The notes below the pieces were generated by a model that did no database searches, was not told the DNA's origin, and saw only the letters and a program-made list of their open reading frames with translations. A DNA stretch of 64,000 nucleotides from an uncultured bacterium. GTDB taxonomy: Bacteria > Bacillota_I > Bacilli_A > RFN20 > CAG-826. Every line of letters starts with the position of its first letter. Within the stretch, counting starts at the first letter, position 1. Positions 33,124-36,642 of this stretch are shown in pieces. The stretch spans positions 5,609-69,608 of the forward strand of contig CASDXP010000004.1 of NCBI GenBank assembly GCA_949285455.1, read 5' to 3'. The position numbers were made by a program, and so were the translations under genes.

Positions 33124-33197
33124 AGGGGCGTAGTTAAACGGCATAGCAACGGTCTCCAAAACCGTTATTGCGGGTTCGATTCCTGCCGCCCCTGCCA
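33124..33197 (+). tRNA. tRNA-Trp (anticodon CCA)
   Basis: 74 nt. Acceptor AGGGGCG/CGCCCCT, anticodon arm ACGGT-CTCCAAA-ACCGT, GGTTCGATTCC T-loop and an encoded CCA. Confidence 0.95.
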
Positions 33198-33241
33198 ATT
33201 ATGCTTATAATTTGATACTTTGTATCAAAATAATAATATTC

Positions 33242-33262
33242 GCTCGAGAAATCGGGTTTTTT
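33242..33262 (+). terminator. Short GNRA-loop terminator downstream of tRNA-Trp
   Basis: GCTCGA-GAAA-TCGGGT followed by TTTTTATTTTT. It is nearly identical to the element after tRNA-Ser(GCU). Confidence 0.55.
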
Positions 33263-33456
33263 ATTTTTATCTTAATCCTTATAATGATGCAAAATTGAAA
33301 GAAGCTTACGACAAGGCAAAATAATAAATGTATTCGCTAATTGTCCTATACTTAAGATATATCCACGTCAACACTAAAATTTAATTGGTGTTAAAGGTTA
33401 TTCATAATCTACTTAAGTTTTAAAAAAAATTGAATTTTTAATAATGAATTTTCTTC

Positions 33457-34653
33457 TTATTTAATATTCAATAAATAGACGAAAAATTCATCGAGATATT
33501 TTCTTAGATTATATAGTTCAGTTTTGCAAGATGGAAAGATGAAGTTTTCAAGATATATTTTCTTGTTTAATTCGATCGTCATCGAATAGATGTTATTTTT
33601 TCTTCTATTTAAAATGTGATAACTATCAGCGTATGGAAATTTAAAAGAAACTTTGAAGTGATAAAGATGATTTAAGTAATGGATTTTTCTTTTAATTTTC
33701 TTTTTTAGTTCATCGTTAAAATTTGATGAAAAAGTGATGTTAATATCAGGGAAATTTCTATTTTTAAAATGAGGAAATTTTTTGATGATATAAGATTCAT
33801 CAAAGGAGTGGAGCGAGATGATAAACAAATTATTTTTAGTCTTCATTGCTTCGTTTTGCACCGCGCATTCGAATTGATGATTAAAATCTATCCATTGGCG
33901 TAATATTTTAAAATAATTTGGATCTTGGTAAGCATATTTAAATTTTCTAATTCTAACTTTATGTTCTTCATATGGTGATATAGCGTATTGTGGTAGAAAA
34001 GAAAAACCATCCTTTTCTTCTTTTGCATCGTTTCCGATGAGCCTTTCTAAATCGAAAAATAGACGCGAATATTTATTCGAAGCGAAGAAAGAAAATCTTT
34101 TTCCGTTAACAAGTTTATCTAAGAGTGGATCAGAATTGAAATTACTTAGAGTAATAAATGTTCTTTTGTCTATACAAAAAGATGATTTCATCTCATCAAA
34201 TTTATCGACACTAGGACTAAGATGAGGGATACGTAAGACGAGCGAATTAATTCTATTTTCATAAATTCTTTTATATTTTTCTTTCATCGATTTAATTTGC
34301 TTGTTGATTTTACATAATTCATAACGGATGTATTTCGTTTTATTTAATTTTCGTTCTTTATCTAAAATTTTAGGAATTTCTTCTTTTAAATATTGGAGCA
34401 GTAATTGTTTAGTAGGATAAAGTGGTTCATTAATGATTTGCTTATCTTTCGTGCGGTGGTGCATTTGAAAGCTTTTAAAATAATAGATGTAGTCTTTAAT
34501 TTCATGGTCTAGTTTTTCAATGTAATCGACGTTACGATAACCTTCCAAGTAACAACATAAATATTTGATAGACATTCCTAACTTATAATCGTAGCCAGTT
34601 AATGCCTTAGTGTTCCTTACTTCTAAGATAGGATCTTTTTTCTTTTTTGCCAT
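33457..34653 (-). CDS. Uncharacterised protein: Lys-rich N-terminal ~135 aa + N-formylglutamate amidohydrolase (FGase, PF05013-like) domain
   Basis: 398 aa. The motifs RIPHLSP, YSRLFFDLERL, LFIISLHSF, FPYADSY and MTIELNKKIYL parallel the FGase pattern (PHxG, SRxxxDxNR, xHSF, NxPYxG, xEIxxxLY). GAGGAG RBS lies upstream. Confidence 0.55.
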   Translation of the reverse strand: MAKKKKDPILEVRNTKALTGYDYKLGMSIKYLCCYLEGYRNVDYIEKLDHEIKDYIYYFKSFQMHHRTKDKQIINEPLYPTKQLLLQYLKEEIPKILDKERKLNKTKYIRYELCKINKQIKSMKEKYKRIYENRINSLVLRIPHLSPSVDKFDEMKSSFCIDKRTFITLSNFNSDPLLDKLVNGKRFSFFASNKYSRLFFDLERLIGNDAKEEKDGFSFLPQYAISPYEEHKVRIRKFKYAYQDPNYFKILRQWIDFNHQFECAVQNEAMKTKNNLFIISLHSFDESYIIKKFPHFKNRNFPDINITFSSNFNDELKKKIKRKIHYLNHLYHFKVSFKFPYADSYHILNRRKNNIYSMTIELNKKIYLENFIFPSCKTELYNLRKYLDEFFVYLLNIK

Positions 34654-34681
34654 ATGAGTTCTCCTCGTGAAGTGAACCCAT

Positions 34682-34835
34682 AAAAATAAAAACGCCCATC
34701 GATGATGGGGCGACTTAAACCAAGTAATTTAATGTTTCCCATCGTTCAAGCTTTGGCACTTTACTAACTTCAACTTCTTAGCAAGTTGCCGGTGGGTCAC
34801 GGGGCTTGTCCCTCGCCACACTCTTTATGGATTCT
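34682..34835 (-). promoter_or_regulatory. SAM-I (S-box) riboswitch with intrinsic terminator expression platform
   Basis: The minus strand reads UCCAUAAAGAGUGUGGCGAGGGACAAGCCCCGUGACCCACCGGCAAC...(long P3)...AAAGUGCCAAAGCUUGAACGAUGGGA. This carries the S-box signatures AGAG, GAGGGA, GCCC, CGGCAAC, GUGCCAA and a P1 closing GAUGG. The terminator CGCCCCAUCAUCGAUGGGCG + U5AU5 lies at 34682-34712, and its 5' arm can alternatively pair with the P1 3' strand. Confidence 0.8.
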
Positions 34836-34840
34836 TAATC

Positions 34841-34869
34841 ATTATAGTAAGATTTTTAAAAATTGGAAA
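34841..34869 (-). promoter_or_regulatory. Promoter of the S-box leader
   Basis: Minus strand: TTTCCA, 17 nt, TATAAT. The -10 lies ~7 nt upstream of the start of P1. Confidence 0.55.
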
Positions 34870-34982
34870 TATTTTTTCATCAGTGTTGTTAGAGAAATTC
34901 TATCAATTTGTCCCTATATTGGTTACTTAAATATCTTCATATTTTTAGGATTTTATAATTATAAAAGTAGGAGGAAAATCAA

Positions 34983-35438
34983 ATGTCGAAATTTAAATTA
35001 GGAATTATTCTAAGTTGTTCTTTGATTTTAACGGCAATGGTGATTTTATTAATTTGGTCTAGTGTAATAATGCTTTCACCACTTCCAGATTTGAATGCTG
35101 AACAAGCTCAAGCTGTCATTTTAACTTATTCTTTAGTCGTTGTTTTATTAAGTATGGAAATAGTGTTTTATATTTTACCTATCATCTCAGCAGTGAAGGA
35201 TGACCCATCAATTTATTTAGGTATCATCTTATTATTATTTGGTGGAATAATTCCTGGCATTTTGTATTTAAATTGGTACAACTTCGAAGCTACATCGCCA
35301 GAAGTGCGTGAGCACAAGAAAGCTGAACGCTCACTAATAAATTATTCTGTTGAGTATAAATTAACTAAAGCTGCCGCGGCTAATGGCAAAGTTATTGAAA
35401 AGGCTAAAGCTAACGAAATTAGATTCTTTCACAAATAA
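34983..35438 (+). CDS. Small membrane protein, unknown function
   Basis: 151 aa with 3-4 TM helices and an AGGAGG RBS 7 nt upstream. Confidence 0.6.
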   Translation: MSKFKLGIILSCSLILTAMVILLIWSSVIMLSPLPDLNAEQAQAVILTYSLVVVLLSMEIVFYILPIISAVKDDPSIYLGIILLLFGGIIPGILYLNWYNFEATSPEVREHKKAERSLINYSVEYKLTKAAAANGKVIEKAKANEIRFFHK

Positions 35439-35586: not shown

Positions 35587-36642
35587 ATGAAAAAGATCGT
35601 TTTGGCGTGTGTAGCATTAAGTCTACTTTTACCTTTAGTAAGTGGCTGTGGAGAAGAAGGAAATGATGATCCAAAAACTTATCAAATAGATGTTGAAGTA
35701 AGTGAAATTTATGAAATTTATAATATTCAAAAAACTGCTCATGAAGGGGAGACAGTCTTCTTCGATGTAAGAAGTACTTCTGTATTTTATGATGTTGATA
35801 AAGTCTACGCGAATGATGTCGAAGTAACATTAGGTAGTCTAGGCTATTCTTTTATTATGCCAGGTGAAGATGTTTATCTTCGTGCTTCAACTCTAGAAGT
35901 TGGGGAATATGATGATTTAGACGATCATTTGAGTTGGGGTGATTCCGTTAATGGGAAAATAATTTCTTTAACAGAGGAAGAAAAAAATGATGGTTTCGAT
36001 CACTATCAAAGACTACCTTTAGTGTTCGACGGTATAAGTTCTGGAAATTGGATTACTTCCATCGAAACTGAAATTTATTCTTCTCATCAAGAAATCATTC
36101 CTAATGAAGCTATTACTTTTGTAGAAACTAAAGCCTCGACTTCCAGCGCTATTATTGGAGGATATTTAAATATAAATTTAAATAAAGTAAGTATCGGAAA
36201 AACTTATATCTACGTTCATCTTGATCCTAACAATGCTTCTTTAGGCACGCTTATTAGGGAATTTGAAGTTATTTCGCCCGAAGAAGAATTATATGAAACG
36301 ATGCCAATTACTTTCGAAATTGACAATAACACTAATTACGGTTTAGAAGATATATTTATCAATCTTACCGACACGATCGATGACGATATTAATTCTTATT
36401 TTTTAAGCGAAGCACAAGACGACGTCTTAGCATTTGATTATCGGGTTGGTCACACTTACCGTTTGACGGTAGGGGCAAGAGATGAAAATAATAATTATGT
36501 TACTTTATATTTAAACGAATGGGTGGGAACGAACGTCGGTGGTTTCACCAATACAATCGAAGAAGATTCTAGCCGAGACGGCTTATATTATTTAGTAGTG
36601 GAAACTTCTGGAATTAGTGTCCCATTAGTGATCAATGACTAA
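35587..36642 (+). CDS. Lipoprotein, unknown function
   Basis: Signal peptide with lipobox LVSGC. 351-aa acidic extracytoplasmic protein. Confidence 0.7.
   Translation: MKKIVLACVALSLLLPLVSGCGEEGNDDPKTYQIDVEVSEIYEIYNIQKTAHEGETVFFDVRSTSVFYDVDKVYANDVEVTLGSLGYSFIMPGEDVYLRASTLEVGEYDDLDDHLSWGDSVNGKIISLTEEEKNDGFDHYQRLPLVFDGISSGNWITSIETEIYSSHQEIIPNEAITFVETKASTSSAIIGGYLNINLNKVSIGKTYIYVHLDPNNASLGTLIREFEVISPEEELYETMPITFEIDNNTNYGLEDIFINLTDTIDDDINSYFLSEAQDDVLAFDYRVGHTYRLTVGARDENNNYVTLYLNEWVGTNVGGFTNTIEEDSSRDGLYYLVVETSGISVPLVIND

Follow-up and report, generated by a model that had tools for sequence, protein, structure and literature searches.

The window analysed here is a 64-kb stretch of DNA from an uncultured bacterium (GTDB lineage RFN20; CAG-826). 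Its minus strand carries a gene for a 398-aa protein whose C-terminal part resembles N-formylglutamate amidohydrolase (FGase), and the leader of this gene contains an S-adenosylmethionine (SAM)-I, or S-box, type of riboswitch. All elements listed in the initial annotation are present at, or close to, the positions it gave. The features of the locus are as follows, in the direction of transcription.

34841 to 34869, minus strand: promoter-like site, with -35 TTTCCA at 34869-34864, a 17-nt spacer and -10 TATAAT at 34846-34841
34736 to 34833, minus strand: SAM-I (S-box) aptamer without helix P4, matched by RF00162
34831-34827 with 34742-34738, minus strand: P1, 5 bp
34821-34791, minus strand: P2, including a K-turn-like internal loop
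34790-34755, minus strand: P3
34808-34805 with 34750-34747, minus strand: pseudoknot by complementarity, P2 loop CAAG with CUUG of J3/4
34704 to 34743, minus strand: antiterminator, GAUGGG at 34743-34738 (overlapping the 3' strand of P1) with CCCAUC at 34709-34704 (in the 5' arm of the terminator)
34681 to 34712, minus strand: intrinsic terminator, stem 34712-34693 (CGCCCCAUC/GAUGGGCG) with loop AUC and one bulged C, then a U-run at 34692-34681 (UUUUUAUUUUUA)
34661 to 34666, minus strand: ribosome-binding site, GAGGAG, with the ATG (34653) following after 7 nt
33457 to 34653, minus strand: open reading frame (ORF) of 398 aa, ATG at 34653
34252 to 34653, minus strand: N-terminal domain, residues 1-134, specific to the family
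33457 to 34251, minus strand: divergent FGase-superfamily (PF05013) domain, residues 135-398 plus the stop codon, from profile and structure matches

The whole window was scanned against all 4227 Rfam families, and the SAM-I aptamer was the sole riboswitch found in the 64 kb. RF00162 scored 48.6 bits, above its gathering score of 44.4, with E 4.4e-8 when the window and all families are taken together, and was the best-scoring model of its clan, above the overlapping clan models. In the RF00162 alignment the conserved model positions are filled by AAGAG, GAGGGA, GCCC, UGA, CCGGCAAC and GUGCCAA. The initial annotation had named the leader SAM-I from such core strings, and this Infernal-type check upheld the assignment. 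All model positions of helix P4 are deleted, GAAC alone lies between the pseudoknot strand of J3/4 and the 3' strand of P1, and the four-way P1-P4 junction is not present. P4 had earlier been described as unusually short; the RNA does vary structurally, but P4 is absent altogether, a variation already on record for natural SAM-I RNAs. According to PMC12714719 (citing Trausch 2014 and Heppell 2011), P4 is very short or missing in some natural RF00162 members; hence the absence of P4 does not exclude membership of RF00162. Judged from its sequence, the window RNA is a genuine SAM-I riboswitch of the known P4-less form.

Comparison with related RNAs leads to the same class. The window RNA has the core, the P1-P2-P3 arrangement, the P2 internal loop and the P2-loop/J3-4 pseudoknot of SAM-I (RF00162; yitJ and metI leaders of Bacillus subtilis), as well as the same OFF switch, in which a terminator is opposed to an antiterminator that uses the 3' strand of P1. 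Unlike standard SAM-I, it has no P4, a three-way junction, a length of about 100 nt and a P1 of 5 bp. SAM-I/IV (RF01725) and SAM-IV (clan CL00012) have the SAM-I-like binding core in common with it and also lack a P4 inside the junction. In both of these classes a second pseudoknot is made by a hairpin on the 3' side of P1, and SAM-I/IV reportedly has no P2 internal loop. By these class criteria the window RNA differs from SAM-I/IV, as the terminator is its only hairpin after P1 and the P2 internal loop is kept.

Promoters and terminators were sought in comparison with shuffled sequence. The terminator was the sole terminator-like site in positions 33300-35100, against 0.6 in shuffled sequence. 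When the nascent RNA was folded to position 34701, where the 3' arm of the terminator is not yet made, the minimum-energy fold was the antiterminator with P1 open; when P1 was enforced, the terminator formed. The antiterminator complementarity is common to all homologous leaders. The SAM-OFF layout of terminator and antiterminator proposed earlier was thus reproduced by the scan and by folding with and without P1, and SAM-OFF transcription attenuation of the classical S-box design is well supported as a prediction. A single gene is controlled by the riboswitch, as had been stated, and its 398-aa length was borne out. The TTTCCA-17-TATAAT promoter is also present and matches 10/12 consensus positions. 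Because this AT-rich DNA has no excess of promoter-like matches over shuffled sequence (6 found vs 9.9 expected), it is the position of the site that speaks for it.

The leader would then work as follows. A sigma-70-type promoter probably starts the transcript a few bases before P1, and the first ~100 nt would fold as a P4-less SAM-I aptamer that joins P1, P2 and P3 in a three-way junction and retains the P2-loop/J3-4 pseudoknot. With abundant SAM, P1 would be held closed and CCCAUC left free, so that the terminator forms and transcription stops at the U-run ahead of the gene. With scarce SAM, the P1 3' strand GAUGGG would pair with CCCAUC, the terminator would be blocked and the single downstream gene would be transcribed. 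We infer from the sequence that the window aptamer binds SAM and that SAM controls termination, and we consider regulation of this kind very probable.

The pairing of this riboswitch with this gene recurs in other genomes, a point that the initial annotation had proposed to check. We call the 398-aa type, with the N-terminal and FGase domains, the long form, and proteins of ~220-290 aa without the N-terminal domain short FGase. The long form is rare: a word-indexed search of 5.8 billion proteins gave four other long-form clusters at 41-48% identity, five in all. A scan of GTDB species genomes then added two metagenome-assembled genomes (an uncultured Bacilli bacterium and Candidatus Alectryobacillus merdavium), and searching 1.84 billion representatives exhaustively with HMMER yielded, beyond these, only fragments and two further full-length clusters. 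RF00162 lies directly upstream of the gene in 7/7 distinct long-form loci and in every fetched locus, with scores of 45-50 bits in L001, L002, L006, L007, L008 and L009 and of 35-39 bits in L003-5 and L010. All long-form loci have the same P4-less layout and the GCCCAUC...GAUGGGC terminator. In L006 the Rfam model fitted the antiterminator hairpin as P4; read directly, the sequence of this leader has no P4 either. The P2-loop/J3-4 pseudoknot pairing is kept in all homologous leaders; it is invariant and hence carries no covariation evidence. Since the neighbouring genes differ at every long-form locus, riboswitch and gene move together as a single unit.

One long-form gene carries an in-frame TGA at codon 315 (L006:6943-6945; also in L007, thus in two assemblies), after which conserved sequence runs on to the normal end. 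From its sequence this gene looks like a pseudogene or one with a truncated product. Genetic code 4 was considered for the TGA and rejected, as the standard code leaves the long genes nearby uninterrupted.

P4-less aptamers were further surveyed in metagenome contigs with one exact, narrow pattern across J3/4 and P1 (GTGYYAAWGCTTGAAYGATGG). Aptamers sharing GCTTGAAYGATGG occur on at least 120 contigs (L011-L130), mostly from gut and rumen metagenomes. A P4-less covariance model built from six long-form leaders matched essentially all pattern contigs end to end over 86-115 nt, and gave the window aptamer 102.6 bits. The end-to-end alignment holds 104 related aptamers, 98 of them distinct and used for covariation. 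In these, 92.8% of cells are paired, compared with 36-40% for slid partners, and changes on both sides were seen in 14/22 pairs, among them 5/5 of P2a, 2/3 of P2b and 4/7 of P3; these counts are biased toward the structure because the alignment follows the model, and the inner four P1 pairs, fixed by the search pattern, are uninformative. The P4-less form is therefore neither new nor rare, and it is no novelty of the window locus.

The genes behind these aptamers were counted by taking the first ORF called behind each of them, giving 105 distinct products among the matches listed, which were scanned against Pfam and then clustered. Two small-protein families without a Pfam match head the count (14/105 and 12/105 loci), followed by FGase (PF05013, best E 3e-47) at 11/105, metK at 9/105 and priA at 8/105. 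FGase is thus the most frequent Pfam family among the first genes listed. In both priA loci examined (2/2; L035:469-6585 and L062:4964-10834), priA heads a priA-fmt-X-metK operon, where fmt encodes methionyl-tRNA formyltransferase and X a ~430-aa protein without a Pfam match. With the 9 metK-first and 8 priA-first loci taken together, metK or metK-containing operons stand behind the aptamer form in 17/105 of the matches listed. SAM riboswitches have metK as their signature gene, and its presence among the targets is indirect support for SAM as the ligand. It could be argued that the P4-less variant senses another ligand, such as S-adenosylhomocysteine or a SAM-related compound, as classical methionine genes are a minority among the first genes. 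We regard this as very unlikely, because every conserved SAM-I core position is kept, the alignments show no substitution in the binding pocket, and metK is a frequent target.

The 11 short FGase genes behind the same riboswitch form (L020, L024, L049, L054, L068, L080, L102, L106, L109, L125 and L127) scored 91-251 bits against a hidden Markov model of the closest global relatives of the window protein. Hence, the pairing of SAM riboswitch and FGase extends beyond the long-form protein.

The other targets are of mixed character. Further first genes encode IS1595 transposases, Sel1 and LRR_5 proteins. An IS1595/ISXO2-type transposase gene lies directly 3' of a SAM riboswitch on three unrelated contigs (L013:7191-8524, L060:566-1891, L154:1516-1606). 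The two small Pfam-less families are cytosolic proteins of about 95-260 aa and about 100-120 aa, one found in L012, L036, L039, L059, L073 and L110, the other in L011, L018, L025, L057, L066 and L121; such proteins are an odd target set for a SAM riboswitch. Paired P4-less aptamers within about 0.4-1.8 kb were observed in L061 (3506-3594/4034-4122), L100 (39-127/434-523) and L110 (56-153/1866-1976), and also in L042 (35-124 and 613-703), where the second copy is weak (40 bits). In L061 there is apparently one aptamer ahead of each of two successive small genes. On IMG/VR viral contigs, 5/10 P4-less riboswitches precede a ~100-aa Pfam-less family (L147, L149, L151, L152 and L155), with products 38-75% identical to those of L097 and L112, and the other small family lies behind the riboswitch of L153. 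The genes concerned may be SAM-controlled and carried by phages or prophages.

The 398-aa protein itself is best understood by profiles and structure. As a single sequence it reached 23.0 bits with Pfam PF05013 (E 1e-4), below the threshold of 28.9, and 3/5 family members gave a PF05013 hit of any kind. A family profile of the five long-form members reached ~40 proteins of 240-260 aa among the 1.84 billion representatives (E 4e-13 to 1e-4), and all eight of these that were scanned are solid PF05013 members (97-152 bits vs Pfam). Alignment of the family with short FGase by hhalign gave 99.7% probability (E 2.8e-26) over residues 130-392 and 246 columns. Because the single sequence stays below the Pfam threshold, the FGase similarity is secure only with profiles and the structure model. 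The six motifs of the protein and the corresponding short FGase consensus are:

RIPH144xS: HIPHxS
SRLFFD201LE203R204: SRLxCDVER
SLH282SF: DCHSF
PDINI: PDICIG
FPY: NxPY
TIE361LNK: MIEINK

In a 71-sequence alignment D175, D201, E203, H282 and S283 are invariant, and H144, R197, E361, N363 and K364 are kept in at least 90% of the sequences. By analogy with the fold class, the conserved His, Asp and Glu residues would bind metal. Since the conserved His/Asp/Glu/Arg/His/Glu positions of the family are intact, the protein is probably a metal-dependent amidohydrolase.

Structure prediction agrees with the profiles. AlphaFold (AF2) gave an unusable model on the 5-sequence alignment (pLDDT 46.6) and a confident one after 66 short FGase sequences were added (pLDDT 89, pTM 0.85). 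The top and sole significant Protein Data Bank (PDB) match of this model by Foldseek was 2q7s (E 2e-7, probability 1.00, identity 12-13%), with a TM-score of 0.64-0.65 normalised to the target. No useful match came from a Foldseek comparison with viral structures, and the family-profile search of PDB sequences returned low-complexity coiled-coil noise and no FGase. The earlier placement of residues ~135-398 in the FGase family was therefore confirmed by both hhalign and the match to 2q7s. An intact, divergent FGase-fold hydrolase, presumably cytoplasmic, is well supported by the model, and the FGase fold is very likely correct.

The first ~134 residues had been said to belong to no recognisable family, and this held in every search. 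Residues 1-134 had no match in Pfam, NCBIfam, PDB sequences or PHROGs, and matched solely the long-form family and its fragments among the 1.84 billion representatives. They are also unrelated to the riboswitch-controlled small Pfam-less proteins (hhalign probability <1%). In the model this domain consists of short helices, a beta-hairpin (63-79) and a long helix (99-132), with pLDDT mostly 78-97 from residue 21. Thirteen of its residues are invariant, namely G20, D22, M27, S28, Y31, Y35, L36, G38, R40, Y55, H65, H66 and Y79.

The matching structure, 2q7s of Ralstonia eutropha, is a HutG-type FGase with the same motif series H..S, SR..D.(N/E)R, HS, PY and E.N. The window protein differs from it by the 12-13% identity, the extra N-terminal domain of 134 residues, the non-hut flanks and the SAM control. 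For these reasons it is scarcely credible that the gene codes for a common N-formylglutamate amidohydrolase of the HutG type that acts in histidine degradation, even though PF05013 is the only family-level similarity and the sole matching solved structure is annotated FGase. The single sequence does not reach the Pfam threshold, the flanks are a nitroreductase gene, tRNA-Trp and two Pfam-less ORFs, and it is hard to see why histidine catabolism should be under SAM control. The C-terminal domain is most closely related to the short PF05013 proteins of uncultured Bacilli and Clostridia from gut and rumen. They carry only the database name 'N-formylglutamate amidohydrolase', none is characterised, and some stand behind the same riboswitch. 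Unlike the window protein they have no N-terminal domain, and the riboswitch was absent from 6/6 of those sampled.

Riboswitch-gene pairing is among the more reliable guides to the physiological context of uncharacterised enzymes. The regulatory logic implies no more than a need for the enzyme at low SAM. We favour, with some reserve, a SAM-OFF riboswitch that controls an FGase-fold amidohydrolase serving methionine or one-carbon salvage. At low SAM, the enzyme would cleave an N-formyl or N-acyl amide and supply methionine and/or formate to the methyl cycle. That the substrate is such an amide, for example N-formyl- or N-acetyl-methionine as in the initial annotation, follows from the regulatory logic only and is a tentative, rather doubtful suggestion. 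A full-text literature search found no paper linking a SAM riboswitch with FGase or formylglutamate. The riboswitch is ordinary, while its pairing with the FGase gene family is recurrent and appears undescribed in the searchable literature. A SAM sensor tied to FGase-fold hydrolases gives a concrete lead to the enzyme function, perhaps an undescribed step of methionine or one-carbon salvage. If an N-formyl or N-acyl methionine is indeed the substrate, this would be a new salvage step in the methionine/one-carbon metabolism of uncultured gut Bacilli, which are likely auxotrophs with small genomes. The contribution of P4 could also be studied with this aptamer, a compact natural SAM-I RNA of ~100 nt that has a three-way junction and a full expression platform.

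Several observations weigh against the favoured reading, the first of them on the side of the RNA. P1 of the window aptamer is merely 5 bp, and affinity falls as P4 shortens or is lost (PMC12714719, citing Heppell 2011). In the full leader the antiterminator is not the global minimum-energy fold; therefore the choice between the two folds would have to be kinetic, which is usual for such switches. A short P1 and an absent P4 with the expected drop in affinity could also mean that the RNA is a decayed SAM-I without useful SAM binding, its leader acting as a constitutive terminator or being a relic. Such decay is very improbable: P4-less aptamers do respond to SAM, with lower affinity (PMC12714719, citing Trausch 2014 and Heppell 2011), and the core nucleotides and pseudoknot of this one are intact. 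Moreover, the architecture is kept in 7/7 long-form loci despite proteins at 41-48% identity, P2 and P3 covary strongly, and the same form controls metK.

A second set of unfavourable points concerns the protein family and the genomic context. The single sequence does not reach the PF05013 threshold, as given above. No SAM riboswitch was found (Rfam E <=0.1; P4-less model E <=1) in 6/6 short relatives picked for their long contigs, so that the FGase family as a whole is not tied to SAM; general SAM control of the short subfamily was accordingly rejected (0/6 sampled). No neighbour or hut gene among the flanking genes points to a substrate, and no conserved operon partner or gene order was seen around long-form or short FGase genes. 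The GC content of the gene is 27.6%, compared with 34% for the window, and its 90%-identity cluster has one member, whereas those of the neighbours have 24-27. With its low GC, its place beside tRNA-Trp and its cluster of one, the gene looks accessory, and this look would not be expected for a housekeeping salvage enzyme.

These features raise a further explanation, in which the gene belongs to an accessory or mobile region, the riboswitch reports general starvation or a loss of SAM to a phage SAM lyase, and the role of the hydrolase lies in stress or defence rather than in methionine salvage. A GC trough (23-29% vs about 34-36%) covers 33124-34700 and begins right after tRNA-Trp (33124-33197). 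The flanks of the gene vary by locus and include AAA/DUF87, SIR2_2, DUF4143 and T5orf172 genes in L001 and L008. Short FGase relatives adjoin transposases, Fic and prophage-like small ORFs, and the same riboswitch form precedes the IS1595 transposases and Pfam-less small proteins, with one family behind 5/10 of the viral matches. In an empty-site check in close relatives, the contigs of two other assemblies break off right behind the nitroreductase gene that adjoins the tRNA. The sequence around the gene suggests a strain-variable insertion.

Other results speak against this explanation. PADLOC gave no significant match, an AbiTii hit (E 0.012-0.027) in 1/4 proteins scanned being rejected as noise. 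PHROGs and NCBIfam gave nothing significant for the long-form protein. None of the viral-contig riboswitches (0/10) precedes FGase, and three FGase genes on viral contigs have no riboswitch. The control of metK by the same riboswitch form also means that ordinary SAM homeostasis suffices as an explanation. We therefore consider the accessory stress or defence role rather unlikely and retain methionine or one-carbon salvage as the preferred reading. A broader proposal is likewise improbable in our opinion, namely that the P4-less riboswitches of gut and rumen Firmicutes define an unrecognised response to SAM shortage, consisting of an undescribed reaction of the short and long FGase-fold proteins (e.g. 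free N-formylmethionine to methionine and formate) or of a reaction to SAM depletion as a sign of stress or infection, shared with the riboswitch-controlled Pfam-less small proteins and transposases of mobile and phage-like DNA.

Among the short relatives without a SAM riboswitch, L131:3001-5348 and L132:3001-5348 are an identical three-gene block of short FGase, a 118-aa protein and a DUF6602 protein in differing contexts. The block is flanked by transposase genes in one context and looks like a mobile cassette.

The neighbours of the gene in the window are a nitroreductase gene, tRNA-Trp and two ORFs without a Pfam match. The two ORFs lie by the promoter on the opposite strand:

34983 to 35438, plus strand: ORF of 151 aa without a Pfam match
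35587 to 36642, plus strand: ORF of 351 aa without a Pfam match

The 151-aa ORF adjoins the long-form gene again in L145.

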